NCBI GenBank assembly: GCA_964016885.1
Contig: OZ024742.1
Span: 121,830,001 to 121,894,000, forward strand
Length of the DNA stretch: 64,000 nt
Origin: Eledone cirrhosa
Taxonomy: Eukaryota
Direction: 5' to 3'
The notes below the pieces were generated by a model. It made no database searches. It had not been told where the DNA came from and saw only the letters and a program-made list of their open reading frames with translations. How positions within the stretch are numbered: the stretch's first letter is position 1; the number at the start of each line of letters is the position of its first letter. Made by a program: the position numbers and the translations under genes. Positions 4,112-62,680 of this stretch are shown piece after piece.

Positions 4112-4526
4112 TGGCCATGTGCTAAAAGTAGAAACAATTATATATATTTGTCTATAAATATTTGTCTGTATAAATATAAACCGACAAACACCGATAAACT
4201 CTCACAAATACACACGCGTACACACATACAGGCATACACTCACAAAAATGAACAAATATGCATTGACACACATATGCACATACACTCAGACAAACACACA
4301 CACACGCACGCAGAGCGTGGAAAAATTTGGAAGTCATTTGGCTGTTCTTGCCATAGTTTTTTCACCACCCTCTTCCTCTCTTTTACACATACATACACAC
4401 ATATACTTACACAAAGCTTTGTGCAAAAGTTGAAACGCTGTTCGATTTTTTTTCGTCGTAGAGTTTTCACCATCCTCTTTCATGTGGACTGACACATGGA
4501 CGGACGACATTCGACTGTTATATAGA

Positions 4527-4713
4527 TAATTATTTCTACTTTTGGCACAAGGCCAGCAATTACCCAGTGTATTACTAGTACTTTATTTTATCGACCCCGT
4601 AAGGATGAAAGGCAAAGTTAACTTTGGCGGGATTTGAACTCAGAATGGCAAGGGCCGTAACTCTATGCCTCAAAGCATGGCGTCCGACCCTCTACCGATA
4701 CTGCCAATCCACG
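4527..4713 (-). mobile_element. tRNA-derived SINE with 18-bp TSD
   Basis: Matches the copies at 9533, 14537, 53963 and 57658, including the B-box-like GAGTTCAAATCCC. TSD gactgttatatagataat at 4513-4530 and 4714-4731. Confidence 0.9.
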
Positions 4714-4829
4714 GACTGTTATATAGATAATATCCACAAAATACTTATGAGAAATCGGATTAGATTTCGAACAGTTAATGTCAAGCTCTGTACAAAATTA
4801 GATTTATATGCTCCCACGTCATGAGATGC

Positions 4830-9350: not shown

Positions 9351-9532
9351 ATTCTAAATAAATTTTAATAGTTTTTCAAGTTTGTAAAAGTTAACAACAG
9401 TTTTATTTTAAAATATTCCTTTATATGAATCAGTTTATTAAAACAAATCTGCACTAAGTATGATATCCTCCATTATTGTATATATATATCGTATATATTG
9501 TATATATATATCGTATATATTGTATATATATA

Positions 9533-9725
9533 GGCGGTGGATTGGCAGTATTGGTAGAGTGTCGGATGCCATGCTTTGGCGCATAGAGTTACGGCCCTTG
9601 CCATTCTGAGTTCAAATCCCGCCGAGGTTAACTTTGCCTTTCATCCTTACGGGGTCGATAAAATAAAGTACCAGTAATACACTGGGTAATTGCTGGCCTT
9701 GTGTCTAACGTAGAAACAATTATTG
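9533..9725 (+). mobile_element. tRNA-derived SINE, full length
   Basis: ggcggtggattggcagtattggtagag...gagttcaaatcccgccgagg...gtagaaacaattat. Confidence 0.9.
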
Positions 9726-10306
9726 TATATATATATCTTATAGAATAAGGTTTAGTTAAAACACACAAAAATAAAGGGAGACAACCCACCAAAAACAACT
9801 TCAATGGAAATATTTCCAGCTCTCGCACTTCTAGTAATTGTTATGATATGCAGCGACAGCTTCACATAAACAACTATGATATGGATTCAAAACGGCTTTT
9901 CCTGAAAGTCATTAAAAACATTTTTGCCATTAACGAATGCACGCTTAACATAGTAAAATGTATCCCTTCAAGAATAAACTTTACTGGAAAAGTTATAAAA
10001 CGTTTATTTCCAAATACGTCTAAGTGTTTATGGTGACATCCATATTAACAATATTAATACGCCATGTGTACATATATTTATAGATATGTCTCTTAAATTT
10101 ACACTCACATGCAGACAAACACAGAGAGCATTTCTTTTACCAGTCATGTTGATACTATAAGAATTTCGCTTTGCAATCACGGGTCTTAGTTTCTAACCGT
10201 ACACTCGTCTTTGTAAATAGTTATTTCTACTCTTTCATTTAATCCTTTATATCATTTGTATATATATATATATATCGTTATGTAATAAACAACATAAGAT
10301 AATTAT

Positions 10307-10364
10307 TTCATTTACCAGTGGTTTCTTGAAACCCAAAAAATCTACTTTCAGTCGTCAGAATGAA
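10307..10364 (-). ncRNA. Type-I hammerhead ribozyme motif
   Basis: Minus strand ttcatt-CTGACGA-ctgaaag..gtttcaa-GAAA-ccactggt-A-aatgaa, with GUA cleavage triplet and stem I ttcatt/aatgaa. Confidence 0.75.
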
Positions 10365-10470
10365 AAAATCCTGGTGTTTTTATTGAATGTGGATTTGAAA
10401 ACAAAAATATAAGAAATATGAAAGTGAGGCTGAGAGAAGAAGAAAAAAAAGATTATAAATATATAATTAT

Positions 10471-10667: not shown

Positions 10668-10956
10668 AACATACATATATATATATACATATATATATAT
10701 AAACATACATACACATACACATAAATAGACAAACACACACACACACACGGTCTTCAAAATGCTTTTAATTAAGCATAAAGTGTATTGCAAAATACATTAT
10801 ATATACATCCATATATATATTTCTATTTCAGAGCTCCAATTCTAATTTTTAATTTCTGCCTGACCAACAACCGCTCTGCATACTCAGCTACTGATTATTT
10901 ACTAGACTTCTATAAGAATATAACATCAATGATCTCAGCAGACAGGTGGGGTAGTT

Positions 10957-11000
10957 GGCCTTGATAAGCTTCAACCAAAGCGAAACAAGTCTTGTCGGCT
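10957..11000 (+). ncRNA. Type-I hammerhead ribozyme (U3:A8 core)
   Basis: ggcc-TTGATAA-gctt caacca aagc-GAAA-caagtcttgt-C-ggct. Stem I is extended by gatctcagcagacagg/cctgtttgctgagatc (10931-11023). Confidence 0.8.
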
Positions 11001-11272
11001 TATCTCCCCTGTTTGCTGAGATCAAAGTGAGTGAATTCGTCACTACTTTAAAACAATAGCTTACGGTCTTCAAAATGCTTTTAATTAAGCATAAAGTGTA
11101 TTGCAAAATACATTATATATACATCCATATATATATTGCTATTTCAGAGTTCCAATTCTAATTTTTAATTTCTGCCTGACCAACAACCGCTCTGCATAAT
11201 CAGCTCCTGATTATTTACTAGACTTCTATAAGAATATAACATCAATGATCTCAGCAGACAGGTGGGGTAGTT

Positions 11273-11316
11273 GGCCTTGATAAGCTTCAACCAAAGCGAA
11301 ACAAGTCTTGTCGGCT
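11273..11316 (+). ncRNA. Type-I hammerhead ribozyme (second tandem copy)
   Basis: Identical core to 10957-11000, 316 bp downstream. Confidence 0.8.
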
Positions 11317-11440
11317 TATCTCCCCTGCTTGCTGAGATCAAAGTGAGTGAATTTGTCACTACTTTAAAACAATAGCTTACGGTCTTCAAAATGCTTTTAA
11401 TTAAGCATAAAGTGTATTCCAAAATACATTATATATACAT

Positions 11441-11513
<73 letters not shown>

Positions 11514-12536: not shown

Positions 12537-15341
12537 CACACATATATATATACATACATATACACACACATACATAAAGTTGCATCACCACATATATATA
12601 AAAAACATACACACACATAAACACACACACACACACACACACATACACACACATACACATATATATATATATATATAAGTACATACATATACAAACATAT
12701 ATACATAAACATACATATACACGCACAAAAATTACACACTCACATAAGTACATATATATACATACATACACATACATATACATATACACATACATACATA
12801 TATATACATACACACAGAAATATATATCTATATATAAAATAGGGTGGGTGGGTGTGTAAAGGGTAAGGTAGAAAGTAGGGGGGAATATAATCAACAGAAA
12901 TATAAATAACATAGGAAAAAATATAAATATAAGAGGAGATGAGGGAGAAAAAGAAATTATGGGTAAATAATGTGAGTTCAGAGAGTAATAATAATCGTAG
13001 AGGATGTAAGGCGTAATGAGTAAAGAAGTTCAAGGTGGTTGAGTCATCGTAGGAATGTCAATCCACTTACAAAGTAGATGTGATTTCAGATGAGGACAAC
13101 ATTTAAAGGTCTCGGTCTTGGAGTTAAGGCAAGTGGAAGTGGCTTTCCAATTTGGAGAATTCTAAATTTTTTCCGTGGTGCACAAAGCACAATTCTTTGT
13201 GCCCCTTTGGTATTCTCTTGAATGGTCTAAAATAGACCAATCGATAGTGTACGGGATGTTTTTGTCTTTGAATTCCCACACTTTATTTGCGAGAGCCGTT
13301 GATGTTCTTTTATCAGAGTGTTTAAAAGAAGCGACATGTGCATAAAACCTGGTTTTGAACCTGTCCTGTGTCATGCCAACATATCGTTCACGCCTGGCTG
13401 GCTGGTTGTTAATCAACGGTGTCAATTTGGCCTCACACACAACGGATTTAGTATTACATTTGCCCTGTAATGGGCATTATTCCGTCTTCCTGCAACTACA
13501 TCCTGGATTTACTCTCGTACGATTAGAGTTGGTAATTTTAGTCTTCATTGATGGACAGCAAGAGTAACTGATTTTGACTACATTTCTATTAAATATCTTA
13601 TAATATCTATGATTAGGGGGAAAATATTTGTCTAGGAGGTCGAGGAATTTCCTTCCTACATTAGTTTTGACAGTTAGAGAGAAGGGGGTGTAAACCAAAT
13701 AAATTTCCTTTTGCTTAGTTTGTGATTAGTTTTAGAGGAAGGAGTAGGTAAATATTTAATATATTCTGTAAAGCCGCTGTTATTGAGGGCCTTATTATAA
13801 TAAGGGGCGGCTTTGTTAAAAATGTCTAGAGACGAAGATTAGGTAGAAATCCTACGGCTAATATTGGGAATAAGATTTTTAAAAACTGTAGGGGTATGGC
13901 AAGACTCTTTGTGTATATATCTTAGATTTTCGTTAGGTTTATGATAAGGTTTAAAAGAGGCAGTAAGTAGATCAAGATTAATATCAAGAAAGTTAGCATT
14001 AGTAAGGTTCGTATCTATAGTAATTTTAAGGTTTTGGTTAGCAAAAGTATTGATTAAATCTTTACAGAATTTATCAAGGTTATGGCCGTTGGTGGTATGA
14101 GAAACTGCCAATCCGGCGTCTCGGTATAAACCGATATTATGGAAAGGAAATGTCTCTTTAAGGGTGTGGAGAAGGAATAATCCTACTAAGTCGCACACAC
14201 CAGCACTGTCATATGAACCCATCGCAACATCAAAAGAGTTTTCAGGGCTTGACTTTTTAACCCAAATACTTTCATTAGTAAAGAGTAGAGTTTTTCCTAG
14301 CATGAAAGATAATGTATTCTTCTAATTTAGAAATATTAATGAAAGGTCTTGCAAAATCTAAGGCTTTGTTAATAAGGAAACAGTAATAGAGGGGTGAAAA
14401 TCAACAATATCAAATTGGGTAAATCTACACTTAATTTTACCTTGTATATTGCTAAACCAAGAAATAACAGGATGTATTTAACCATTGTGATAAGTCAGTC
14501 TTAGTTCTAATTTGGAGTATTATTTTTCTTAAGATTAGAGCGGTGAATTGGCAGTATCGGTAGAGGGTTGGACGCCATGCTTTCTAGAATAGTTACGTCC
14601 CTTTACAGTCTGAGTTCAAATCCCGCCGAGGTTAACTTTGCCTTTCATCCTTACGGGGTCGATAAAATAAAGTACCAGTAATGTACTGGGTAATTGCTGG
14701 CATTGTGCCTAAAGTAGAAACAATTATTTTTCTTAAGATTTTTTTTACTAGCAAGGCCAACTTCAGATTTAGCCGGGTTAATTAGTCTACAGCTAGGTCG
14801 AGTAGTGAAGTCAGATTTATAGTCTTTTAGGGTAATATATTCTTTACGTTTAGTTAGGCTTTCAATCCGGTTATCTATTTAAAAAATATTAGCTAGGTCT
14901 TTAGCTTCTTTATTAATCGTATTGTAGGTGTTATTGTTAGCTAATTGATATTTGTTGGTGATACTATCTGTTAAAAGTTGGTTATACAAAATACTATTTA
15001 CTTCAAATAGATTTTTAGTTTTATCGGAAAGAACGAAAGTGTTTGTAGAATTTTTAAAATTAGAAATATCGTTAGAAAGTTTGAAGGTTATTGTTGTACT
15101 TACGAAATTTGATTTCACTAATTAAATTAACAAGATCCAATTCGAAGTTGGCCATGTCTTTATTCTAGGTGAGTATATGCGGGATTTAATGTCAAAACAA
15201 TCATTTGTATCAGCACTGAATAGTCCATCGTAACCATTGCCTTCCATCTCATTCTTTTAACGACTTGTTCGATTTTATCTATAAGCAGTTTGGTATAAGT
15301 TGTGTTTGAAGGAGTAGGTATATTTTTGATAGAATAATCCA

Positions 15342-15551: not shown

Positions 15552-16212
15552 ATATATATATATAAATGGAATAGAATGAAACGAAATTTCATTTCTCACT
15601 CTAAGTACGGCACTTACTTAAATGTAAGTATGTATGTATGTATACGTACATACATATATGTATACAGACGTACAGTAGTATGTATATATATACATACATG
15701 CACATATATATATATATATGCACGTATCGGTTTACCGAACATTTATTATAATGCTCGGTTTGTTTGTTTGAAAACAAACAAACAGCCCGAATTACGCCGT
15801 ACAGTGTTTAGGCAACCACGTTACCTTTTTGTTCAACATTGACACAGGAACGATATACTAGTTTCAAGGTTATTAGCTATCGTCAGCATCGTATACCTTC
15901 CTGCCAGATAGTTGAACGTCTGAAAGTATATACTTTCCTTATGCATATTAACGGCTGAGCAGCCTAATTTGCATATCGAGTGAGTTCAGTCGTCCGGGCA
16001 CACCGCAAACGATAAATGGAATAGAATGAAACGAAATTTCATTTCTCACTCTTAGTACGGCACTTACTTAAATGTAAGTATGCATGTATACGTATATACA
16101 TATATGTATACAGACGTACAGTAGCATGTATATATATACATACATGCACACATATATATATACACGTATCGGTTTACCGAACATTTATTATAATGCTCGG
16201 TTTGTTTGTTTG
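15552..16212 (-). mobile_element. Tandem ~460-bp hammerhead-containing repeat (retrozyme-like), about 1.4 units
   Basis: ataaatggaatagaatgaaacgaaatttc recurs at 15552 and 16012. There is an HHR on the minus strand and (TA)n flanks. Confidence 0.75.
15850..15892 (-). ncRNA. Type-I hammerhead ribozyme motif
   Basis: acgatg-CTGACGA-tagctaataacctt-GAAA-ctagt-A-tatcgt, with palindromic stem III ACTAGT and a weak stem II. Confidence 0.7.
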
Positions 16213-16356
16213 TAATATATATATACCTGGAGTTGCGACCGATAGATAGTATTAGCAACTGGAAAGACCAACGGAAACATTGTTTCTTCGGTCCGATTTG
16301 ACGAAAGTCGATCGCTCCTTTTATATGTTTGTCTGTTTGAAATACAACAATATTTG

Positions 16357-20121: not shown

Positions 20122-20345
20122 GTGTGTGTGTGTGTGTGTTTATATATACTTATATATTTATAATCTCTTATTCTTCTTCCCTCAGCCTCACTTTCATATT
20201 TCTTATATTTTTGTTTTCAAATCCACATTCAATAAAAACACCAGCATTTTTTCATTTTGACGACTGAAAGCAGATTTGTTTGCTTTCAAGAAACCACTGG
20301 TAAATGAAATAATTATCTTATGTTGTTTATTACATAACTAATAAG
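19665..20345 (+). mobile_element. Non-coding PLE-terminus-like repeat with HHR
   Basis: Reverse-complement homology to 11550-11800 and 10277-10460, and 3' homology to 37120-37245. Confidence 0.7.
20251..20308 (+). ncRNA. Type-I hammerhead motif (C3U variant)
   Basis: ttcatt-TTGACGA-c tgaaagcaga..tttgctttca a-GAAA-ccactggt-A-aatgaa. Confidence 0.7.
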
Positions 20346-23251: not shown

Positions 23252-23340
<89 letters not shown>

Positions 23341-23571
23341 GAGTTAATCAAGATTCAATGAGTACATCAAAGAATGAGTTTTACAGTAGATAGGAAGCAC
23401 TCTACATAAAAACTTTTCCAGAGTTATTAATATTTAAATACAAATATTAATAAAATAGATGTTCTTTTACATCAATTAAATTTTATTATACATATTTCGG
23501 AGGATTTAATCAAGGTACCTTGATTAAATCTTAACCATTTAACATCTCAGGGTATGTCATGTATCATTATA

Positions 23572-23620
23572 TTTTGTCTGATGAGGACGTACTGTTGTAC
23601 CTCCGAAATATGTATAATAA
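23572..23620 (+). ncRNA. Type-I hammerhead motif
   Basis: ttgt-CTGATGA-ggacgtac tgtt gtacctcc-GAAA-tatgtat-A-ataa. Confidence 0.7.
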
Positions 23621-23730
23621 CATTTTATTGATCAAAAGAACATTTATTTTATTAATATTTGTATTTTAATATTATATATATATATATACGATATTAACAA
23701 ATGGAAACTATATTTATAAAACCATATTTA

Positions 23731-23791
23731 TTTTATTATACATATTTCAAGGACACCAGGTTAAATTATGGTGTGCTTTCATCAGACAAAA
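23731..23791 (-). ncRNA. Type-I hammerhead motif
   Basis: ttttgt-CTGATGA-aagcacacca..tggtgtcctt-GAAA-tatgtat-A-ataaaa. It has the same flanks as 23572 but a different, still paired stem II. Confidence 0.7.
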
Positions 23792-24119
23792 TACAATATA
23801 GATCAGTTTTATAAATAAATATTGACATACCCTTAAAAAATGCAACCATTACTGTTGGAAGCTCCCGGATAGTGGAGTTGTTTACTTATATTATTATTAG
23901 TATTGGATATTTTAAAATAAGTCGTTGGGTTAGAGAGAAAGAAAGAGAGAGAGAAAAAGACAGAGAAAAGAAAGAAAAAAAAAGAAAAAAAGAAAGAAAA
24001 GAGAGTGAGAGATACCAAAACAACAGAGAGAGAAAAATATAGAGGTAGAGAGGGGACAGAGAGAAGGGGAGAGAACGAAAACATTAAGTCATCAATCGGA
24101 GATGACTTGTTAGGAAGGC

Positions 24120-29038: not shown

Positions 29039-29185
29039 TATATATATATATATATATATATGTGAAGATAGACATAGAATATTCGAAAATATTCTGTATG
29101 TTTATAATAACATTTTGAAGACCTAATCGCTATAGAATAGAATACGTCACGTATTACAATTAGATTCTCGATAAAAGCAAGGGAA

Positions 29186-29228
29186 GTAATCTACGCGTTT
29201 CATTCTTATTAGAAATCTTCAGGATTAC
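29186..29228 (-). ncRNA. Type-I hammerhead ribozyme
   Basis: Reverse complement of 29381-29423. Confidence 0.8.
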
Positions 29229-29380
29229 ATATCCAGTGCTTTTATCGAGAATGACACAGCTAGAGACTTATAGAATACTTAGCTGTGTACAGGAACTGGT
29301 TTGAAAGAGCGGTTGCCGGTCCGGCAGAAATTAGAAATTGGATTAAATGCTCTGAAATGCTCGATAAAAGCACTGGATAT

Positions 29381-29423
29381 GTAATCCTGAAGATTTCTAA
29401 TAAGAATGAAACGCGTAGATTAC
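29381..29423 (+). ncRNA. Type-I hammerhead ribozyme, canonical core
   Basis: gtaatc-CTGAAGA-tttct aata agaat-GAAA-cgcgt-A-gattac, with stem III palindrome ACGCGT and extended stem ctcgataaaagca/tgcttttatcgag. Confidence 0.85.
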
Positions 29424-29690
29424 TTCCCTTGCTTTTATCGAGAATCTAATTGTAATACGTGACGTATTCTATTCTATAGCGATTAGGTCTTCAAAATGTT
29501 TATTATAAACATACAGAATATTTTCGAATATTCTATGTCTATCTTCACATATATATCGCTATTTCAGAGCATTTAATCCAATTTCTAATTTCTGCCGGAC
29601 CGGCAACCGCTCTTTCAAACCAGTTCCTGTACACAGCTAAGTATTCTATAAGTCTCTAGCTGTGTCATTCTCGATAAAAGCACTGGATAT

Positions 29691-29733
29691 GTAATCCTGA
29701 AGATTTCTAATAAGAATGAAACGCGTAGATTAC
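29691..29733 (+). ncRNA. Type-I hammerhead ribozyme (second tandem copy)
   Basis: Identical to 29381-29423, 310 bp downstream. Confidence 0.85.
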
Positions 29734-29893
29734 TTCCCTTGCTTTTATCGAGAATCTAATTGTAATACGTGACGTATTCTATTCTATAGCGATTAGGTCT
29801 TCAAAATGTTTATTATAAACATACAGAATATTTTCGAATATTCTATGTCTATCTTCACATATATATCGCTATTTCAGAGCATTTAATCCAATT

Positions 29894-30278: not shown

Positions 30279-30279
30279 T

Positions 30280-30449
30280 ATAAAGAATCGAGACACCGAC
30301 GACTGAGCTCTTACCGTTTCAACAACTCTTTCCAGACTTGAACTAGCTACTGAAACGTCAAGAGCTCCCGACACTTTATAACATTGTATTAGCCCAAGTA
30401 TCAAGTACTCTGTTGAGTAATGGTCTAACCAGTTTCAAACTGAATACAT

Positions 30450-30455
<6 letters not shown>
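30280..30455 (-). repeat. Short hairpin element in (TA)n (AGTACTCAATAC family)
   Basis: The minus strand has cattactcaacagagtacttgatacttggg as at 38302-38330. It also has an imperfect IR, gagctcttaccgtttca/tgaaacgtcaagagctc. Confidence 0.6.
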
Positions 30456-30499
<44 letters not shown>

Positions 30500-30503
<4 letters not shown>

Positions 30504-30825
30504 GGAAAAAAATGAAACAAAATTTCATTTCCCACTCCCAGTACGGCTGTTACTTAAATATAAGTATGTACACGTACATACATATATGTATACAGACGCA
30601 CAGTAGTATGTATATATATATACATACATGCACACATATATATATATGTACGTATGGATTCACCGAACATTTATTGTAATGCTCGGTGTGTTTGTAAGCA
30701 TTATAATAAATGTTCGGTGAATCCATACGTACATATATATATGTGTGCATGTATGTATATATATATATACATACTACTGTGCGTCTGTATACATATATGT
30801 ATGTACGTGTACATACTTATATATA
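30500..30825. repeat. Fold-back fragment of the 460-bp family
   Basis: Homologous to 15560-15760. IR arms lie at ~30560-30683 and 30698-30822. Confidence 0.75.
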
Positions 30826-30831
30826 TATATA

Positions 30832-34630
<3,799 letters not shown>

Positions 34631-37066: not shown

Positions 37067-37123
<57 letters not shown>

Positions 37124-37149
37124 TGTAATAAACAACATAAGATAATTAT

Positions 37150-37207
37150 TTCATTTACCAGTGCTTTCTTGAAGGCAGATGTATCTGTCTTCAGTCGTCA
37201 GAATGAA
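37150..37207 (-). ncRNA. Type-I hammerhead motif
   Basis: ttcatt-CTGACGA-c tgaagacagat ac atctgccttca a-GAAA-gcactggt-A-aatgaa. A partial inverted copy lies at 37251-37290. Confidence 0.7.
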
Positions 37208-38177
37208 TAAAAAACATGGTGTTTTTATTAAATATGGATTTGAAAAGAAACGACTGAAGACAGATACAACATCTGTCTTCAAGAAACCACATGTATATAT
37301 ATGGAAGCCGAACCGGGTACATTGGTGTATTAAGTACATTTAATTTTAGTTTTTTTATTTACCTCTTTTTAAGGCTAGGCCGGTTTGGATTTTGTTTTAG
37401 TACGCTTGATAGCACTTTGAATCAGCTAAATATTCGTTGAAAGCGACGTCAAAGCATGATTTTATAGCAACTAGCAACTGAAACGAGTAAAAGTGTACAT
37501 CAGTTCTAATTCGATCCTGTGAATATGTACTTATATGATTTCATAGATAAATATAATAGAATATAGCTTACATTGCGTTTCACAATTTATATTGCTAATT
37601 TTTCGACAACACTAAATACGCCGTGTTGCTCCCGAAATTTTATTTATATGAGCTTTGTCTGATATTGATCTAATAACACTTGTGTAAAAATTGACTTTTC
37701 TGATTAGCACAACTGAAACCATACTCAAAGAACACTTGTAGCGTTCATGAATTGTATTTCCACGGACAATTTCCCTTCAGGATATATCAGCATCTACAAT
37801 TATCTTCCTGTCAAATGCATATTGAATAACATAAGAAAGGTTTTCTCTCGATCAACAGAACCCTTCAAGAGATGTGAGAATAATTACCTTATTAATATTT
37901 GCGATGAATAATATGATTATTGCGATCATGCTTATGATGATAATGCTGACGGTGATGATAATGATGATGATGGCAACGATGATGATGACAGAGAATTTGA
38001 AGAAATTAGTGAAGATTATTATTATGAAAACTGTATTAATTGACAATATCTACATTATATATTGTGGTTAAGTTTTCAATTTGTTCTGGAATATTCTTGT
38101 CTTAAACCCACGTCAAATATTTAAATGAGAATATAATATGAATACGTAAAAACCTCTACAACATCCAAATATAGAAC

Positions 38178-38244
<67 letters not shown>

Positions 38245-38299
38245 AAGAAAAGAAGAACGGGAGAAGTTTTCCTCGTCAGTTGTCTGCTGGGGGTCTCGG

Positions 38300-38474
38300 A
38301 TCATTACTCAACAGAGTACTCGATACTTGGGGAAGTAGAGTGGGTAATATGAAAAAAAATCAGGACCTCGACGGCTGAGCTTCGGCCGTTTCACCAGCTA
38401 GATCTGAACTTCGGATTTAGCTGTTGAAACGGCCGTGGCTCAGCCGTAGGGGTCGGGATCCTGAATTTTTTCAA

Positions 38475-41540: not shown

Positions 41541-41620
41541 AATGTCTTGGAGTTAGCAAGTCGGAGGGTCTCTATCACCCAAGAGTGGGGAACAGAATCA
41601 AATGTATGTATGTATGTATG

Positions 41621-42807
41621 TTTTCTCTTTCTCTTAATTTCGAGTATATTTTTTTTGACCGGCCACCTTCCTGGTGGCAAGGTTGTAAAAGAAAAGAAAT
41701 TGTCATCCCTTGAATCGCAAGAATGTTTTGCATATTTTGAAGGTGCCAGCTATCGCAGCCATTTGTAGACTATGAATTAGGGAGCTGGGCTTTTTGTCCG
41801 CAAATCCAAGTTCGGTCATACTTTGGTCCAAGCGGGTTGGTATATAACCCGTAGCACCAATAATGATGGGTATGAAGCTAAAGGTGTATCTTGGATACTG
41901 GATTTGTAAGCTCCTCATCAATGGTCCGTAGATGTCCTCCTTCTCCTGTATTTTTCTGACAACGTTTACATCAAGTGGGCAACTGATCTCCACAACAGAA
42001 CACGTGTTCAATGTGTGGTCCCAAACTACAATATCAGGCCGGTTGTGCTTTAATTTGGTGGCAGTTTTTATTTTCAGGTTCCACCAGTATTCCTTAGTGC
42101 CATCTGTCTCAATATATTCTTCCTCGTTTGTTGTTAATTTTGTTTTCCGAAGTGCGTTCCAGATAGTTCTAGCTATCCCATCGTGTCTCATGGGGAGGTA
42201 GTAGCGAGATGACATTCTTTCGCAGCTGGCAACAATGTGGCTTACATCCTCGATCTTTGTTTTACATAGCCTACATTTATTGTCAGCTGCTGGCCCTCCT
42301 CTTTTGTGCAGCAGATATTTGGTAGGGAGTTCTTGTTCCTGTATTGCATAGAGATATCCCTCAAGGTGTGATGTCATAAACTTGTCGGAACTCCATGCCA
42401 GGCTTTTTGAGTGGTTTATCCCCTCTATGGTCTGTGTTTTACGCCTCAAGTATCCATGCACAACTTTCTCTGTAAATTGGTCAATTTTTTTTTCTTGTTT
42501 GAACATTGAATAGGATCTTCCGATTTCTCTGGGTGAGAGATTTATATCAGGCTTTATTCCATATCTCTCCTCCAGATCAGTCGCTATTCTAATGATATTT
42601 CTTTTTTCATGCTCATAAACCTGAGCAAGATGGTCGCCAACCTTTTTCCTCTGTTGAAGGTGTTGCTTCAGTGTTACTATCCGGGTCTCATATGTTGTTA
42701 ATATTGATTTTAGACCCCGGCCACCTTCCTTGCGTGAGAAGTATAGCCTATCCACATCACCATTGATGTTAAAGTTCCCAGTAACACTGAGAAGTTTTCG
42801 AGTTCTA
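41621..42807 (-). mobile_element. 5'-truncated copy of the young R4/Dong element
   Basis: Near-identical to 42870-44057 apart from a few SNPs, and bounded on both sides by (TATG)n. Confidence 0.93.
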
Positions 42808-42869
42808 TGTATGTATGTATGTATGTATGTATGTATGTATGTATGTATGTATGTATGTATGTATGTATG

Positions 42870-45800
42870 TTTTCTCTTTCTCTTAATTTCGAGTATATTT
42901 TTTTGACCGGCCACCTTCCTGGTGGCAAGGTTGTAAAAGAAAAGAAATTGTCATCCCTTGAATTGCAAGAATGTTTTGCATATTTTGAAGGTGCCAGCTA
43001 TCGCAGCCATTTGTAGACTATGAATTAGGGAGCTGCGCTTTTTGTCCGCAAATCCAAGTTCGGTCATACTTTGGTCCAAGCGGGTTGGTATATAGCCCGT
43101 AGCACCAATAATGATGGGTATGAAGCTAAAGGTGTATCTTGGATACTGGATTTGTAAGCTCCTCATCAATGGTCCGTAGATGTCCTCCTTCTCCTGTATT
43201 TTTCTGACAACGTTTACATCAAGTGGGCAGCTGATCTCCACAACAGAGCACGTTTTCAATGTGTGGTCCCAAACTACAATATCAGGCCGGTTGTGCTTTA
43301 ATTTGGTGGCAGTTTTTATTTTCAGGTTCCACCAGTATTCCTTAGTGCCATCTGTCTCAATATATTCTTCCTCGTTTGTTGTTAATTTTGTTTTCCGAAG
43401 TGCGTTCCAGATAGTTCTAGCTATCCCATCGTGTCTCATGGGGAGGTAGTAGCGAGATGACATTCTTTCGCAGCTGGCAACAATGTGGCTTACATCCTCG
43501 ATCTTTGTTTTACATAGCCTACATTTATTGTCAGCTGCTGGCCCTCCTCTTTTGTGCAGCAGATATTTGGTAGGGAGTTCTTGTTCCTGTATTGCATAGA
43601 GATATCCCTCAAGGTGTGATGTCATAAACTTGTCGGAACTCCATGCCAGGCTTTTTGAGTGGTTTATCCCCTCTATGGTCTGTGTTTTACGCCTCAAGTA
43701 TCCATGCACAACTTTCTCTGTAAATTGGTCAATTTTTTTTTCTTGTTTGAACATTGAATAGGATCTTCCGATTTCTCTGGGTGAGAGATTTATATCAGGC
43801 TTTATTCCATATCTCTCCTCCAGATCAGTCGCTATTCTAATGATATTTCTTTTTTCATGCTCATAAACCTGAGCAAGATGGTCGCCAACCTTTTTCCTCT
43901 GTTGAAGGTGTTGCTTCAGTGTTACTATCCGGGTCTCATATGTTGTTAATATTGATTTTAGACCCCGGCCACCTTCCTTGCGTGAGAAGTATAGCCTATC
44001 CACATCACCATTGATGTTAAAGTTCCCAGTAACACTGAGAAGTTTTCGAGTTCTAACATCCATCTCACTTAGTTCTTGCAATGACCAGTTCAGTAGGCCA
44101 AATGTTGGCGTTAGAATTGGCACAGCATAGGTATTGTGGGCAATGTATTTGTTGTATGCTGACAGTTCTGATGACCATATTTTTTTTACTCTTCTGAGGT
44201 ATTCAGTTCTGGTTCTCTCCTTATTTATGGGTCCATCATATCTGACATTCTCATCCTGTCCAAGATATCTGTAGTTGTCACCTGACTGCAGAGGTTGTAT
44301 TGTCAGGCCGTTCATCTCTAGATTTCTAGAGGAGGGCACAGCTCTTCCACGTTTTACTGCCAAATATGCACACTTGGACTCACCAAATTTCATTTTGATG
44401 TCGGTTGAAAATTGTGTAATGAGGTCCAATTGTTTCTTGATGTCATTGATATTTGGCCCATACAACTTCAGGTCATCAACAAAGAAAAGATGGGAGATAC
44501 TTCTGGGCCCACTTCTTTGTCCACCTTGTTTCCTGAGTAGGTAAGATAGTGGATTCAGTGAGAGAACGAAGAGTAGTACTGACAAGCTATCACCCTGAAA
44601 GATGCCCTTCTGGTAATGTATCCCATCAGTCTTAACCTGCTCCTTCTCACCTCTAAGGATCAAATTGGTGTACCAGTTCTTGGTCAGGCGTTCAACAGCA
44701 GCTACTAATGGTTGTGGGACTTTAGCTAACTGTAAAGCCTTAATAATCCACCCATGAGGTACACTATCAAATGCTTTTTGATAGTCCAGCCACACGACAG
44801 TCATGTTTCTGCGATTCTTTGTTGTTTTTTCCTGAATCATTTTGTTAGTTAGTAGGTGATCTATGCAACCCCACACCTCCCTCTTTCCACCAGCTTGCTC
44901 AGGTGTTATGATGTTGTTGGTAGCACAGTGATCCTGTAAGAACAGGTTAAGGCACCCAGTATATAATTTATACATGATGTTTTGGCAGGCAATTGGGCGG
45001 TAATTTTTAGCAAGGGTGGTTTGGCTATTTTTGGGAATGAGGAGAGTAGTGGCAGTTGATAACCATCTGGGCAGTTCTTGTGTGCCCTTAATGGTTTCTG
45101 TAAACAGCCGTATGAGATCTTGCCGATAGAAAGTGAAATTCTTCAACCAGTATCCTGTAATGAGGTCTGGGCCTGGCGATTTCCTATTCGACATTTTCTG
45201 TAGAGCTGTTTCCAGTATTGACCCATCTATGTCATATTGTTTTGTCTGGACATGTTGGCAGTAGTCCTGTTCCAGTTGTTTTAGCCAATTAGCTTGTCTG
45301 TTGAATCCGTCATCCGTTTCTCATACAGATCTCCAGTAGTTCTCAACCTGTTCTTTTGAAGGGGTGTCGTTTACAGGGATTGAACTTTTGCCACCGAAGC
45401 TGCGATAAACTGATTTAGGATCTCTGGCAAACAATCTATTTAGCACTTGTCGTTTATGGGCTGTTGACTTATATTTTAGTCTTTCTGTTGTAGCTGTGAG
45501 TTGTTGTTTCAACTGGTGTAATTTGGAGTTCAAAGTTTTAAATTTGGTATCTCCAAATCGTCTCTCTAACTTTTTCTTTAGGTCTTCCTGGTGTCGTGTG
45601 AAGTTTCTCTCTATGTTGCATTTCATAACGACTGCGATGTGTGAGATACTTCGTCTCAGGGACAAAATTTTGGTTTTTAAATTTCGCATCCACGCTGGTT
45701 CAGGCTTTCTGTTTGTATCTTGATTGCGTGGTTTTAGATGTGTGTTATATGATAGCAATGTGACAGCTGAAACATATAACAAAACATTGAGCGTTTCAAA

Positions 45801-46668
45801 TGTCGTTTCTACACCTTTAGATCGTATAGCCTTCAGATAATTGCCAGCTATTTCGTTCACCGCTTCCAATTCCAATTTAGTGGGTTCTTTACTGACTCTA
45901 GTGTTGTATGGTCTGTCACTCACATTAAGGCTGTGTATCTCTTGAAACATATCGTTCCATATCACTTGTAGGGTGCCCACAAGTTTTTGGTGCTCTGTTT
46001 GTTCAGTAGAGTCATGAATTGCAGCCTCGTTGTTGATGTGGTGACAATTACTACTAGAGTCAGCTGACCTTTCTCGCTGTTCTTCAGTGGAAGTGGGATG
46101 GATTTCAGCAAAATTGTTGGTGAGCTGTTCACTGTTAGATTTAGCTGGCCATTCTCTTTGTCTGTCAGTGGAGGTGGGGTGGTTGTCTACAAGGGCTGTA
46201 TTTGTAGTATCACTCGATTCCGTTAGATGTATCAATTTACATCTAATGATACGTTTTGCCTGTTCATTTAGATGCTTTGGAGAAAAGTCTAATTCTGGGT
46301 GTTTGGAGTTCCATAAAGTTTTTAGCCTTTGCATAAAACCGAACTTTTGGGGTTCAGATTGTTTGTATGCTTCATATAATTCTTTGTTAAGCTCGTAGCT
46401 CCACTGTATACAACGGTTGTAATTGCGATTTGGTCGAAGGAGACTTGTACTTTTTGCCATGATGAGTTCGTCTATTCACTAATATTTTGTATTTATTTTT
46501 TTAAAATAGTCGATGATCTTCTTTAAAAGTTACGACAAAGTTCTGTCAGAATCAAATTTAAAGTTATTCACAGCTTGGGTAATATTTCTTTTCAGTTAGT
46601 TTTAAATTCTACAACTGTGTTTTAAACGTTGTTCTTGAATCGTTTGAATCGAGAACAAAAAGAACCGT
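42870..46668 (-). mobile_element. Full-length R4/Dong-clade non-LTR retrotransposon in a (CATA)n microsatellite
   Basis: Single reading frame with RT and REL endonuclease, and (TATG)n on both sides. The 3' UTR has the hairpin gccacc-aggaa-ggtggc. Confidence 0.93.
42951..46460 (-). pseudogene. R4/Dong ORF (1170 codons): RT, CCHC knuckle and restriction-like endonuclease, with one in-frame TGA at 45321-45323
   Basis: The 379-aa and 747-aa ORFs are in one frame, joined by YWRSV*ETDDGFNRQANWLK. Motifs include KSPGPD, NYRPI, WLDYQKAFDSV, GIFQGDSLS, FFVDDLK, CRLC..EDVSHIVASC, RHD, RPDIV and EISCP..EKEDIY. Confidence 0.9.
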
Positions 46669-51373: not shown

Positions 51374-52779
51374 GTATGTATGTATGTATGTATGTACGTA
51401 TGTATGTATGTATGTATGTATGTATGTATGTTTGTGTGTATCTGTGCGTGAGTGTGTGTGTGTATGTTTGCATGTGTCTGTGAATGTCTATGTGTTTATG
51501 TATGTGTATATAAATTGAGAGTGATATAGATAGATAGACAGTCAGACACATAAATAAATAGATAGATAGATATATAGATAGATGGCTAGATATATTGATG
51601 GATATGTTGGTAGAAAAATATATTTGTCAACATACGAACATCAAACACATGTACAGGCAGACGCAGACAGATAAAGACTTTTAATTTCGCATGCATCCTG
51701 TCTCACAAGCAAAGATAATTATATGGTCTGAAGGTGCGACAAATATAAGATGTAAGTATAGGAGGCACCTAGGTTTCGGTGTAGTGGTAGACTATGTGAG
51801 GATGTCAATGGGGGTGTTACTCTAAGCAAGTTAAATCATGTTAGCTGTGGTGATAATTATAGATTTCTATAGGTGAAAGATGATCAGTAATCAGAAGATG
51901 ATTAATCACATGTATAGTGTTATAAGGCACCTTAAGAAAGGAGTGCTGTTAATAAGAATGGTTAGTTTTAGTGGACCATTAGATAATAGAATAAGTGAGA
52001 GAGTTAATGGAGGTGTAGTGAAACGAAGTATGTACTGGCTAGCTGAATGGAAATTTATAAGTGAAAGGCCATTGTAGTTATAGAGTAATAAGAATGTTTT
52101 CTTGCATGTTGTTTGATGTTCATACCGAAGAAAATCTCAAGTTGGAAATAGTGTCTAATGACAGATGTAAGAGAAACGATAGTGACCGAAATGCTAGCCC
52201 GGTATAAGATGATTTGCTCATTGTATTTTGCGACCAACTCCTCGTTATTTTCACGTCAGACTTCTGTAACAAATTTGGCGCCACGGTTGGACTTGTGTAA
52301 ATTAATCTCTTAAGAGTATATAAAAAATGAATTGCAGTAGAACTGGAGTCATGGAATGCCAAATTTGTGGTACTTTTATTAAGACCGTGCACATTACAAC
52401 TCTGCTCACAGATTGAGGTCTCTCAACACAGATTTGTAATTTATGTAGTCTTAATAAAATTACTACTAAAAAGAATATATATATATGTATGCATATATAT
52501 GTATATATATACATATGTACATATATACATATGTACACATATATATATATATATAAACAATTAAGTTAAAAATGTACATCTACATATGCATACTGAAATA
52601 CTAGTATGCATATGAATACACACACGTATACATATGTAGATGTAACAAGTCTTTCACTGGTTACTTTACTGTGAGTAACCCAGCTATTCTGTATGTAAAC
52701 ACACAGACAAACCGGTTTTAGAGTCATACTGGTTTTCGAGGAAACACCTTTCCTCTATTCTCCAGAAAGCCAGAAAAGG

Positions 52780-52824
52780 AACATTGAACTAGTTTCGTTG
52801 TTGTTACAACTCATCAGCAATATT
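52780..52824 (-). ncRNA. Type-I hammerhead ribozyme
   Basis: Reverse complement of 53372-53416. Confidence 0.85.
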
Positions 52825-53371
52825 TACCTATCTACCGGCCTTTCTGGAGAATCGTAAAAGCACATATCGTTATATGCTTTTTCTATGAAAATTAGTAGTG
52901 GGCAGACCAATTTGCATAGAGTGTGAGTACGCACCGGTTCAGCGGAGACGATAAAAACAAATAACGAAACGAAATTAAATTTCGTTTCGTTTGTAACTCA
53001 CTTTTGTATGACTGACGCTTAAACAATTAAGTTAAAAATGTACATCTACATATGCATACTGAAATACTAGTATGCATATGAATACACACACGTATACATA
53101 TGTAGATGTAACAAGTCTTTCACTGGTTACTTTACTGTGAGTAACCCAGCTATTCTGTATGTAAACACACAGACATCACGTCAGTCATACAAAAGTGAGT
53201 TACAAACGAAACGAAATTTAATTTCGTTTCGTTATTTGTTTTTATCGTCTCCGCTGAACCGGTGCGTACTCACACTCTATGCAAATTGGTCTGCCCACTA
53301 CTAATTTTCATAGAAAAAGCATATAACGATATGTGCTTTTACGATTCTCCAGAAAGGCCGGTAGATAGGTA

Positions 53372-53416
53372 AATATTGCTGATGAGTTGTAACAACAACG
53401 AAACTAGTTCAATGTT
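53372..53416 (+). ncRNA. Type-I hammerhead ribozyme, canonical core
   Basis: aatattg-CTGATGA-gttgt aaca acaac-GAAA-ctagt-T-caatgtt, with extended stem attctccagaaag/ctttctggagaat. Confidence 0.85.
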
Positions 53417-53704
53417 CCTTTTCTGGCTTTCTGGAGAATAGAGGAAAGGTGTTTCCTCGAAAACCAGTATGACTCTAAAAACCGGTTTGTCTGTGTGTTT
53501 ACATACAGAATAGCTGGGTTACTCACAGTAAAGTAACCAGTGAAAGACTTGTTACATCTACATATGTATACGTGTGTGTATTCATATGCATACTAGTATT
53601 TCAGTATGCATATGTAGATGTACATTTTTAATTTAATTGTTTAAGCGTCAGTCATACAAAAGTGAGTTACAAACGTAACGAAATTTAATTTCGTTTCGTT
53701 ATTT

Positions 53705-53761
<57 letters not shown>

Positions 53762-53962
53762 TAAAAAAATAATGAATAAAACAATGAAACAGTTCCTTAT
53801 ATTAAACAAAAAATGTTCATTATTTAACGATCGTTTCTAGGATATATATGTGTTAGAATTGGCATGCATATTCAACAGATCTATGTACAAAATTATACAA
53901 AATTATACAAACTATCAAAATTAAATATACATACCAACGCATATATAAGCCGTCTTCAGAAA

Positions 53963-54150
53963 TAATTGTTTCTACTTTTGGCACAAGGCCAGCAATTACC
54001 CAGTGCATTACTGGTACTTTATTTTATCGACCCCGTAAGGATGAAAGGCAAAGTCAACCTCGGCGGGATTTGAACTCAGATCGTAAAGGGACGTAACTAT
54101 GCTGGAAAGCATGGCGTCCGACCCTCTACCGATACTGCCAATCCACCGCC
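53963..54150 (-). mobile_element. tRNA-derived SINE with 18-bp TSD
   Basis: TSD gccgtcttcagaaataat at 53949-53966 and 54148-54165. Confidence 0.92.
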
Positions 54151-54899: not shown

Positions 54900-55670
54900 C
54901 TAGGGCGGGTAAAATTTCCGAGATCCATGGACGAGTTCTCTCCAGCGGTCTCTGTCCCTCATTATCGCTGCCATGTCCTGCGTCTCCAACAGACCAGTGT
55001 CTGTCTTTAGGGCATCAACATATGTTAACCGCGGTCTTCCTCTTCCAGTGTGTCCATGCAGGGGCTCCCGCTTTAGGAAGGCCTTTGTTTCTGTGGACTG
55101 TCACTGCCTGATGAAGATCTTATAGGCTTATGGAATCCCCAAGAAGATAGTGGACCTGATATCACTGCTCTTCACCAACACCAAAGCCCAAGTCATTACA
55201 CCCGATGGGATGACGGATTTCTTTGAGATACTGGCTGGAGAGCTCCAGGGAGATGCATTGGCTCCCTACCTTTTTATCATTGTAGTGGACTATTGTATGC
55301 GCCTTGCACTGGAGAAACACCAGGACTCTGGCTTTACTGTAACACCAGCTCAGAGCAGGAGAGTTAAGGCGAAAAAGATATCGGATGCTGAATTTGCCGA
55401 CGACATAGTTTTGGTCACAAACACAGTGAAGGAGGCAGAGGATTTGATGCAGGAGATTGAGACTGTATCGATGAGTGTGGGGCTGAGAATGAATGAGATT
55501 ATGACAAAATATCTGGTAGAGAATGTTGAGAAGCCAGAGGGGATTACTAATGTAGGCGGGAAGCCGCTAGAGTTGGTTAAGGACTTCCTGTATTTGGGAG
55601 CAAAGATTGGGAATGCGGAAGATGATGTGGTCGAGAGGAAGAGCAAAACCTGGGCAGCGTGCCACAGCTA
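54900..55670. mobile_element. RTE-X-like LINE fragment with 5' inversion
   Basis: The minus strand at 54920-55070 reads EPLHGHTGRGRPRLTYVDALKTDTGL..MRDRDRWRELV. The plus strand at 55150-55670 has RT motifs GELQGDALAPYLF, FADDI and FLYLG. Confidence 0.8.
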
Positions 55671-55683
55671 TACATATATATGT

Positions 55684-55739
<56 letters not shown>

Positions 55740-55931
55740 CGAAGGAAATGTGGTAAGGAACCAGGTGGACCATAACGCACCGAAGTACTCAATACTTGAG
55801 GTAGTAGAGTGGATAATAGGAACCAGTAAGACCCCGACAGCTGAGCTCAAGCCGTTTCGACGGCTAATTCTAAGAGTCCAGAATTAGCCGTCGAAACGGC
55901 TTGAGCTCAGCTGTCGGGGTCTTACTGGTTC
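55740..55931. repeat. Short element with a perfect 52-bp inverted repeat (AGTACTCAATAC family)
   Basis: Arms 55820-55871 and 55880-55931, 8-nt loop, (TA)n flanks. Confidence 0.85.
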
Positions 55932-56031
<100 letters not shown>

Positions 56032-57657: not shown

Positions 57658-57846
57658 GGCGGTGGATTGGCAGTATCGGTAGAGGGTCGGACGCCATGCT
57701 TTCCAGCATAGTTACGTCCCTTTACGATCTGAGTTCAAATCCCGCCGAGGTTGACTTTGCCTTTCATCCTTACGGGGTCGATAAAATAAAGTACCAGTAA
57801 TGCGTTGGGTGATTGCTGGCCTTGTGCCTAAAGTAGAAACAATTAT
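57658..57846 (+). mobile_element. tRNA-derived SINE with 15-bp TSD
   Basis: TSD attattactatttta at 57643-57657 and 57842-57856. A degenerate antisense copy follows at 57890-58030. Confidence 0.92.
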
Positions 57847-59235
57847 TACTATTTTAATTTTTTGCGCTTTTGTGAGAAAGAGATATAGACCCCAGTACTG
57901 GCACTTTTGATATCGACATGGAATGAACGAAAGGCAAAGTTGACCTCAGCGGGATTTGAACAGCACAGAGCGCCGGAACGAATAACACAAAGCATTCCAT
58001 CTGACGTTCTAATGACTCTGCTAATTTGCCGTCTTTTGTATTTATACTGTATATCTAAATTAAAATACTTTTCTGGACCCCATTTCTGTGATAACGGCAA
58101 TAACTGAATTACAGTTAAGAAACAATAAAATGTTCAGTGGGCCAATATGGAATCGAACATTATCGATATCACTGACCTTTATATCCCACTACTACATTCA
58201 TGCACTATATCAAACCACTAATGCACTTATATAGAAAATAACAAAACAAAACCTTATTAAACAATGTGCAACACATTTCTCCCATGTCTCAAGTTTTATT
58301 TCTATATAGGAATAGATACTTTGATTGAAATTCATTTATTTCATATGTACAAAATGCACAGATGTATGCTATATTTGTATGACTATAGTATTGTAGTCAA
58401 ATACATACTGGAAACACAAAATTGAAGAATTTAACAGAAGGGTGTATTCTGAATTATAGTTTCCAATGAATATAGACAGGTGTTAATAGCTATCTCCATG
58501 AAGGTATATCACCCTTAACAAAGACAATGAAAACTGACGATATATTTACTAGTTTATCTTCACAGTATCTATTTTACTATTAGTATAAATCTAAAATTGA
58601 ATTAAATCTGACTTGCAACATGAAATTAAAGTCACTCTTCTAAAGTTCAAACTGAAGAGGCTATATCAAAAGTTAAAATGATAAGCAATGACTGTAGTTA
58701 TCACAGTGGAGAGAAATATTTCATTGATTTCTTTAGAGAAACACAGATCATACTGAGATGAAACTATTTCATTGCCATTGAAATTTAAGTCACATATACA
58801 ATGTCAGTCAAGCCAATGATATCTGAATAAAGAACTAAACTTAAATTTATACTTCGATGTTTTCAGGTGTTTTCTACACCCCCCACCCCCCACACACACA
58901 TATATATATATGTATATATATCGATACTAGCGGCCTCTCGGACTGTACTGTGCTCAAATCTATTTATAAGGCATTTCTTGGTATCTATCATAATGCCAAT
59001 TTTATTGAAATAAAATATGTTAAAAGGTATTTAAATATTGCACAACATAGTATAAAAAAATTATTTAGAATATCTAAAAAAAATTTCTTAGTGTTCCCTA
59101 GCGGTGCTTTTCTATAAATTTGAACGGCTGAGAGGTGTTTATCTGTCACTCCCCGCCTCTGTTTTCGGAAATAGGAGAAGTTGGCGAGTCAGTTGGATAT
59201 CAGATCGGTCAAAACAAAGGACAAAAACCTAGCGA

Positions 59236-59296
<61 letters not shown>

Positions 59297-59336
59297 AGGA
59301 GGTTATAGTTCACTTGAAGCATTGTGTAATGAGGTA

Positions 59337-59753
59337 TAAACGTTTGTATATGTATAATAAAACCAAAACAATGCAGGTATGGACATAGAATAAAGAATGC
59401 AAATGCAAAAGATATTGTTGACAATTAATCTTTTACCTTAGATTTATTTAAATGTCCTTAATTTTCGAGATAATATCTCTTCTTCGGAGGGAAGTAAAGC
59501 GGTTAAACCAGTCTTCTAAATAGCTTGCCAAGTCAAGTTCTAAATGTTTAGTGTTCTAAATGACTTGGCAAGCTATTTAGAACACTGGTTTAACCGCTTT
59601 ACTTCCCTCCGAAGAAGAGATATTATCTCGAAAATTAAGGACATTTAAATAAATCTAAGGTAAAGACTAATTGTCAACAATATCTTTTGCATTTCCATTC
59701 TTCATTCTATGTCCATACCTGCATTGCTTTGGCTTTATTATACATATACAAAC

Positions 59754-59760
<7 letters not shown>
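59337..59760. mobile_element. Divergent ~200-bp inverted repeat element with HHR-like motifs
   Basis: Arms 59337-59535 and 59561-59760. Motif cct-CCGAAGA-a gagat att atctc-GAAA-att-A-agg at 59606-59640, with its reverse complement at 59456-59490. Confidence 0.7.
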
Positions 59761-61887: not shown

Positions 61888-61889
<2 letters not shown>

Positions 61890-62675
61890 CGTTTCTGAAT
61901 TTGTTTAGCAAGATTCTTTATCTGAAATCGTGTGTTGAAACCGATATTGTTATACTTTGGGAGGGTCATGTTGCCAATAAGAAACCAATAAGAAACACAC
62001 GCACTGGTGCGTGTGTTTCTTATTGGCAACATGACCCTCCCAAAGTATAACAATATATATATATAATATAATATAAATATGCTGGAACGGGCTGCTATTT
62101 CTAGTAATCCTGTTAATTGCCAATCGTCCATCTCTTGCTACCCTTCTTGTTGTCCGCCTACCACGTGATATTTTCCCTTTCGAAAATATCACCATTAGCG
62201 GTCACTTGAAATTTCCTCTTGATTTGAGAAGAGTTGTGATGTGTCTTAGTAGAGGATATCCTAACTTAGAATATTCCAGTTGTTTGTTACACGCCGAAAC
62301 TGCAGTCGGGATCACGAAATTAATGAGACAACTTTTTTTTATCTTGTTTGCTTTTCCCCACTTACGAATTTATATATATATACAATACATAGAAGATGGC
62401 GTAGGGCAGAACAAAGGAGAGGCACAAAAACAAAGAAAAGAATCCCCGGTCACTGAAGAGGTCACGGAATGTGTGACGAAAGAACTTTGACAATATATAA
62501 ACAACCAACCGGAAATTTATAAATTCCTAAATTTATAAATTTATTATAATAAATTGAAGTGAAAGCATGTGGTGCGTGTGTTTCTTATTGGCAAGATGAC
62601 CCTCCCAAAGTATAACAATATCCGTTTCAACACACGTTTTCAGATAAAGAATCTTGCTAAACAAATTCAGAAACG

Positions 62676-62680
<5 letters not shown>
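61888..62680. mobile_element. Element with inverted termini, an internal palindrome and an HHR
   Basis: 61888-62005 is the reverse complement of 62571-62680. A palindrome spans 61944-62056, and (TA)n flanks the element. Confidence 0.7.
62449..62491 (+). ncRNA. Type-I hammerhead motif
   Basis: gtca-CTGAAGA-g gtcac ggaatgt gtgac-GAAA-gaact-T-tgac. Confidence 0.7.

Follow-up and report, generated by a model that had tools for sequence, protein, structure and literature searches.

A perfect hairpin holding half a hammerhead ribozyme, probably of Penelope-type origin

How does half of a hammerhead ribozyme come to lie in a perfect hairpin, with a mirror copy in place of its catalytic core? The question is raised by a 192-bp insert, here called A (55740-55931), in an AT-rich, microsatellite-rich eukaryotic window (the whole 64-kb stretch of DNA analysed) that carries reverse transcriptase (RT) and GIY-YIG ORFs of Penelope-type elements (PLEs) near A. 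The insert has (TA)n on either side, at 55700..55738 and 55932..56000, and this microsatellite is the target, in which a target-site duplication is unreadable. A consists of an 80-bp extension at the left only (55740..55819) and a hairpin, the arms of which (55820-55871 and 55880-55931) form the longest exact inverted repeat of the insert, 52 bp around an 8-nt loop (55872-55879). The perfect fold-back reported in an earlier note on this DNA is thereby confirmed. Across 20 block-shuffles of the microsatellite-masked window the longest exact inverted repeat was 11-16 bp, and none of 200 shuffles was as stable as the predicted RNA fold of A (-123.8 kcal/mol, z -16.7). On the - strand the extension, the putative PLE 'tail', continues the left arm, which is an inverted 5'-truncated copy standing head to head beside a direct copy. 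A is a single insert, and the tandem units with a full type I hammerhead by which non-LTR retrozymes are recognised were not found there. A LINE RT fragment, which we take to be RTE-like, occupies 55126-55659 and stops just left of A's TA run, with no evident link to A.

The right arm contains, in order, 13 nt, GAAA (55893-96), a 5-bp stem III, the cleavage triplet GUC and GGGGUC. GAAA, stem III and an NUH triplet of a type I hammerhead are thus all present, and this 3' half occupies 55893..55915 on the + strand, with the stem III strands at 55896-900 and 55910-14, the palindrome TGAGCTCA in the loop of stem III, and C17 at 55915. Immediately upstream, the inner 13-bp stem with its 8-nt loop (55859..55892, + strand) may be the native stem II together with the junction. 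Downstream, the 16 nt that include the 3' strand of stem I and run to the right end of the insert (55916..55931, + strand) may mark a second reverse-transcription start, by comparison with PMC11167929. No CUGANGA core box was found at up to one mismatch on either strand of the element. The earlier note had placed a hammerhead 3' half in each arm, with CUGANGA lost; the sequence is as it described, except that the half is readable in one arm per strand only and is locked inside the hairpin. With its core absent, A should be unable to act as a hammerhead, self-cleavage is not expected, and the locus by itself is probably inert. The half-hammerhead pattern occurs six times in the window against 2.6 times per shuffled window (50 shuffles), so frequently that it carries weight only together with position and conservation; five of the six matches fall in the arms of A and of two related copies, B and C. 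Stem III is fully paired in the arms of all three, where the sole changes are one-sided G-U; there are no two-sided changes, and 203 of 500 shuffles were as good (in an alignment with the row for a further element, D, misaligned).

Copy C (38243..38474, + strand) has a 107-bp tail and arms identical at 47 of 57 positions, while copy B (30279..30453, - strand) has a 69-bp tail and arms identical at 31 of 42 with a 13-bp deletion; both pivot as A does. The kinship of A, B and C is evident from their tails, the homology of each pair being matched in 0 of 1000 shuffles. The copies differ in tail length (69-107 bp) and in the position of the right end, which lies 16-25 nt beyond the cleavage site. 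Read in the sense direction, the three tails have an ATG at one common position, and the tail of C contains on the - strand (38243-38290) an exact CTGACGA followed by a small hairpin without GAAA, probably by chance. Element D (34410..34580, + strand) has a 79-bp tail and exact arms of 36-37 bp. A full type I hammerhead survives in its direct copy (core at 34531), its inverted copy stops in loop II, the two are joined at a 2-3-nt G microhomology, and the right flank is (CT)n. The overall likeness of D to A-C is marginal, with 83-161 of 2000 shuffles as good; a position-matched 11-mer was equalled in 2 of 5000 shuffles. D is probably a distant relative of A-C at best, and its candidacy as their parent was rejected on account of this marginal homology. 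The related copies proposed in the earlier note are real in the case of B and C; at 34489-34580, within D, the full core is kept and the relationship is weak.

Whether A, B and C inherited one hairpin can be judged from their arms. These are identical at 52 of 52 positions in A and 37 of 37 in D, and the identities within A, C and B meet or exceed the 57-75% between elements, a range that B's within-copy 74% overlaps; the suggestion that the mirror was remade in each lineage is upheld. Changes paired in both arms separate A from C at six positions and A from B at four. Free decay from an ancestral A-type hairpin predicts arm mismatches of 57% in B and 46% in C, against 26% and 18% seen (P 5e-5 and 9e-6). 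A single ancestral hairpin decaying without re-mirroring was rejected (P about 1e-5 and 5e-5), and since the mismatch lies far under the free-decay expectation, the mirror was remade, or homogenised, in each lineage. G-T mismatches outnumber A-C mismatches 9:2 in the arms of B and C (P 0.065), while the arms of an insert at 59295 have the opposite bias (no G-T, four A-C). An ADAR footprint in the arms was rejected because C-to-T mismatches occur beside A-to-G and the bias is not significant.

The 80-bp extension contains the motif AGTACTCAATAC (55784, + strand), which had been taken for an upstream motif recurring with the layout. In its exact form the motif occurs only once within the 64-kb window, and the 80 bp most likely represent the tail that follows downstream in the element, in reverse complement, rather than an upstream motif, an assignment that stays inferential because the parent was not found. 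Profile searches (nhmmer, with the extension and with the arm) detected neither a further copy nor a parent for A, B or C within the window, the next hits having E-values of 2.9 and 2.2, and the core-bearing parent called for by the earlier note was likewise missing for all three from the GTDB contigs and from two supplementary sequence files. A degenerate tail pattern gave no matches in the GTDB contigs, where PLE protein alignment yielded three loci from 116 candidates; these neither match A-D nor contain an inverted repeat. No 3' end matching A-C was found in the flanks of the PLE ORFs in the window or of the three fetched GTDB loci, and a link between A-D and the PLE ORF at 30834-33084, beside copy B, was dropped because its flanks lack homology to A-D. 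The GTDB bacterial MAG contigs L001, L002 and L003 that bear PLE ORFs are probably animal contamination; at one contig end (L002:1852-1925) a hammerhead is followed by a TA run.

Other identities for the tail fared no better. A coding role was rejected, since the best match to 37 PLE proteins had E 0.13 and the frames are not consistently open; among the same number of proteins, no ORF N-terminus matched the tail. Conserved RNA structure was not significant in eight folds covering both directions (z -1.3 to +0.2), and a tRNA-derived SINE head was discarded with no tRNA genes found. Rfam gave no matches in the window at gathering score. Its E-value scans returned mostly microsatellite noise, with none below E 2 for the right arm of A and only Hammerhead_3 (E 0.46) for D; the best hammerhead matches elsewhere in the window were to HH9, with E 2.7e-4 at 52764 and 53361.

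Fold-backs of this kind extend beyond A-D. When the 74 segments between (TA)n runs were surveyed and those of at least 60 bp compared with themselves, 12 TA-associated fold-back inserts were counted in the 64-kb window: A-D and those at 23337, 29062, 30501, 35075, 37120, 52556, 59295 and 61888. The count leaves out simple palindromes of short length and a pair of SINEs at 57733. Each of the 12 has an extension at one end. A direct family copy is present in the window for four, and in all four the extension is the contiguous downstream sequence: 56 bp at 61888, by reference to a solo copy at 62570; about 60 bp at 30501, by reference to a tandem at 15566; and 35 bp at 29062 and about 65 bp at 52556, each by reference to its own unit. 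Exact inverted repeats of at least 20 bp (loop up to 300, microsatellites masked) number 18, with 14 in fold-back inserts and the other four in degenerate simple repeat. Pattern matching found 11 full type I hammerheads in the window, compared with 0-1 in 20 shuffles.

The fold-back at 23337-23672 has a 93-bp tail, an inverted copy that stops in stem II and a junction formed by a perfect 28-bp palindrome (23503-23530); beyond a short TA run, 23689-23830 carries a related hammerhead on the - strand. At 29062-29893, a 310-bp tandem unit has an inverted copy at its left and a 35-bp tail, with type I hammerheads at 29387 and 29697 (+) and 29222 (-), and the direct copy starts at a long helix enclosing the hammerhead. 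A 316-bp tandem unit at 10747-11458 is related to the unit at 29349 and retains GAAAC-stem III-GUC with a degenerate core. The 446-bp tandem unit at 15566-16215 has a hammerhead at 15886 (-), and 30501-30830 is its fold-back derivative, with a junction about 100 nt downstream of GAAA. One hammerhead family with a stem II of about 11 bp occurs at 10277-10460, 20210-20340 and 37120-37290, ending in TA about 37 nt past the cleavage site; its member at 37120-37290 has a short inverted copy that extends between the core boundary and approximately the cleavage site. The segment 35075-36938 holds a PLE endonuclease-like ORF fragment, assigned to no family by Pfam; a 3' fragment lies inverted at the 5' end, and an extension is present on one side only. 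At 52556-53707, two copies of a 465-bp unit with a hammerhead (HH9-like, E 2.7e-4) stand head to head and match almost perfectly; partial tandems accompany them, a tail of about 65 bp lies on the right, and we read the whole as a young non-autonomous PLE or retrozyme insert. Both 59295-59756 and 61888-62056 are tail-plus-fold-back inserts. The former has a possible variant core, CCGAAGA (59609), assigned by pattern only, and the latter a solo direct copy (62570-62677) 500 bp away.

We propose that A most likely derives from a hammerhead-bearing PLE, or from a retrozyme of PLE descent, whose 3' end is present twice, each time heavily 5'-truncated, with the two copies meeting head to head. An origin from a PLE is very probable; to the full mechanism, in which two cDNAs from two RNA sites join through stem II, we assign a probability of roughly 0.55. 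The anatomy, the recurrence, the mirroring in each lineage and the presence of this layout in other inserts are observed, whereas the parent, the two-primer order and the native stem II of A are parts of this scheme that we infer. A PLE reverse transcriptase-endonuclease would cut the TA repeat on both strands, and each cut 3' end would prime one cDNA on uncleaved element RNA, one beginning distally, at the end of the tail, and the other proximally, 16 nt beyond the cleavage site. Each cDNA would traverse that site, stem III and GAAA before stalling in the long 13-bp stem II. As stem II is a natural palindrome, the two cDNA ends could pair there and prime each other's second strand, leaving CUGANGA out. 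What results, an inactive half-ribozyme enclosed in a perfect hairpin, would be a by-product of transposition. Joining of two cDNAs would account in one step for the one-sided tail, the arms running across the cleavage site and the loss of the core. In D and the insert at 23337, the stretch between the arms is in sense orientation and forms part of the tail-less copy.

The placement of the junction on the ribozyme's stem II is suggestive only. The pivot centre lies 17 nt 5' of GAAA in A, 16.5 nt in C and 15.5 nt in B, that is within 1.5 nt, and TTTC-to-GAAA spans are 34, 33 and 31 nt, respectively. Pairs -9 and -13 are non-Watson-Crick in both B and C, as expected of an inherited RNA stem. In the intact hammerheads of the window, the core-to-GAAA distance is 12-30 nt, which makes a stem II of 31-34 nt plausible. 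Any mirror yields a stem 5' of GAAA, so for A the argument is partly circular and this copy alone proves nothing on stem II; support comes from the fixed pivot and the wobble states that B and C have in common. One copy stops between core and GAAA in D (34410) and in the inserts at 23337 and 37120. The junction falls within the core-to-GAAA interval in six of the ten inserts to which a hammerhead can be assigned and elsewhere in four (29062, 52556, 59295 and 30501). Recounted with A-C as one and two hammerhead-less inserts added, the figure becomes 4 of 10, with P 0.05-0.6 by assumed prior; over all ways of counting and assumed priors, P for clustering spans 0.001-0.6. The inner stem folds better on the tail-left strand than on the other (-17.4 against -10.2 kcal/mol in C, -4.8 against -1.2 in B), which fits a loop derived from the tail-less cDNA; the orientation of A's loop relative to C is ambiguous (21 against 22 of 34). 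A literature search that covered subscription journals thinly found nothing on junctions in hammerhead stem II.

The earlier note offered, as one of two readings, a cDNA that snaps back at stem II and primes its own second strand. In the version considered here, a single tailed cDNA (or else an antisense RNA) folds back at that stem, primes itself and stops before the tail is copied again. Such an event yields the identical central structure. Self-priming at junction palindromes has already been proposed for PLEs (PMC3846280), and the palindromic junction at 23337 resembles a small fold-back. However, snap-back requires a second reason for the stopping point of the right arm and explains a tail at one end less well. 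The sense stretch of tail-less copy between the arms of D and of the 23337 insert would be impossible by snap-back of a tailed strand, and in B and C the polarity of the wobble pairs points, weakly, to the strand opposite to the one needed. We consider snap-back unlikely, though a fair rival.

The note's alternative was a dedicated family of hairpins of about 180 bp. Understood as non-autonomous elements that multiply whole, their arms held similar by conversion or selection, such a family finds some encouragement in three copies, 25-43% diverged, that share a pivot, a similar length and a conserved tail motif. It is disfavoured, and we regard it as quite improbable, since there is no near-identical pair of copies, neither the tail length (69-107) nor the right end (16-25 nt beyond the cleavage site) is constant, the arms are concerted, perfectly so in A, and the layout is common to many unrelated families. 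DNA template switching can correct quasi-palindromes. If, after insertion, it had 'corrected' a hammerhead made quasi-palindromic by stems I and II, the core would have been lost between two natural stems, and the 80 bp would be upstream sense sequence; D is compatible with a four-point switch at its G microhomology. This too seems very improbable, as the mirror reaches the simple-repeat boundary in tail-left inserts, the extension is downstream and not upstream in all four testable families, and a stem I of 16-25 bp would be demanded. A MITE, a Helitron-type element, a hairpin-RNA gene or an assembly artefact would each fit a long perfect hairpin taken alone, and together they are hardly credible. 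The repeats are not terminal on both sides, 80 bp lying outside A's left arm, as a MITE would not have it. Helitrons have TC...CTRR ends, which are absent. The Rfam scans gave nothing at gathering score and nothing below E 2 on the right arm, and a read artefact is hard to reconcile with diverged copies that repeat the layout and have a tail left unmirrored.

The layout of A is already known for PLEs; the possible junction in stem II is the new and testable detail. In EN+ PLE insertions the 5' end carries an inverted copy that is 5'-truncated, only one end has a tail, and (TA)n targets are favoured (PMC8557442), and PLE copies have been found head to head with junction palindromes (PMC3846280). 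A is like them in its head-to-head 5'-truncated copies, one-ended extension, junction palindrome and (TA)n. Unlike the insertions as described in the accessible parts of these two sources, A is only about 190 bp long without an ORF, the tails of A-C measure 69-107 bp compared with the published 30-40 bp, and the junction lies inside the hammerhead, with the core lost. The anole PLE protein (PAc Poseidon) extends both target strands in vitro on an uncleaved RNA template; two internal RNA starts bracket the tail, a dimer is predicted, and cleavage mutants still insert (PMC11167929). A-C would resemble this system in two internal RT starts bracketing the tail and a 3' end shortly past the hammerhead, whereas in PAc these starts are 111-118 nt inside the ORF and the proximal end of A-C lies 16-25 nt past the cleavage site, with no ORF start matched; the account consulted does not deal with inverted junctions. 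PLE hammerheads and non-LTR retrozymes share with A the type I topology, long stem II and palindromic loop III, and Schistosoma has hammerhead pairs on opposite strands 100-700 bp apart (PMC4209133, PMC7229834, bioRxiv 10.64898/2026.07.22.740005). A departs from these, as far as they are described there, in its 5-bp stem III, long for an animal PLE, in having no tandem array and in its absent core.

If read through, A would give a 52-bp RNA duplex, a substrate for ADAR or Dicer. A short-loop, near-perfect hairpin within one repeat is also a feature of the self-folding repeats edited by ADAR, frog Harbinger and lizard Penelope, the latter heavily edited (PMC5625713). Unlike the TIR transposons among ADAR substrates described there, A would have been made by retrotransposition, as read here from sequence alone. 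For octopus, which the repeat-class analysis did not include, the proportion of loci able to form near-perfect dsRNA was reported as unusually high (PMC5625713); PLE fold-backs are a candidate source of octopus dsRNA if the host is a cephalopod. The origin of tandem and inverted PLE insertions and the role of the hammerhead are stated as open in PMC8557442. Short inserts such as these may reveal, in less than 200 bp, where RT starts at either site and where the junction lies, with several per 64 kb suggested, and a genome-wide junction map could separate two-primer joining from self-priming and probe the role of stem II. One speculative and rather doubtful idea is that the stem II of PLE hammerheads serves as a preferred site for cDNA stopping and pairing in second-strand priming, whether between two cDNAs or in one that folds back, a second role independent of cleavage; it would explain both inverted PLE junctions and the retention of hammerheads despite cleavage being dispensable in vitro. 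PLEs would then steadily generate short perfect hairpins and might be a main source of ADAR or Dicer substrates in such genomes, given the 14 of 18 exact inverted repeats that fall in these inserts here.

Several other elements were noted in the window. The PLE ORF at 30834-33084 is nearly complete (RT and GIY-YIG) and in pieces, its C-terminal part having 70% identity to the best database relative; its 3' flank contained no convincing hammerhead. On the - strand, 41602-46475 is a long non-LTR retrotransposon, presumably R2/NeSL-like, with a 789-aa RT ORF and a 3' part tandemly duplicated (1.2 kb, 99%). Finally, a SINE-like repeat of about 190 bp, which we assume to resemble octopod SINEs, is abundant, with copies 89-97% identical at 53958-54150, 57658-57850, 14540-14729, 4519-4733 and 9517-9731.
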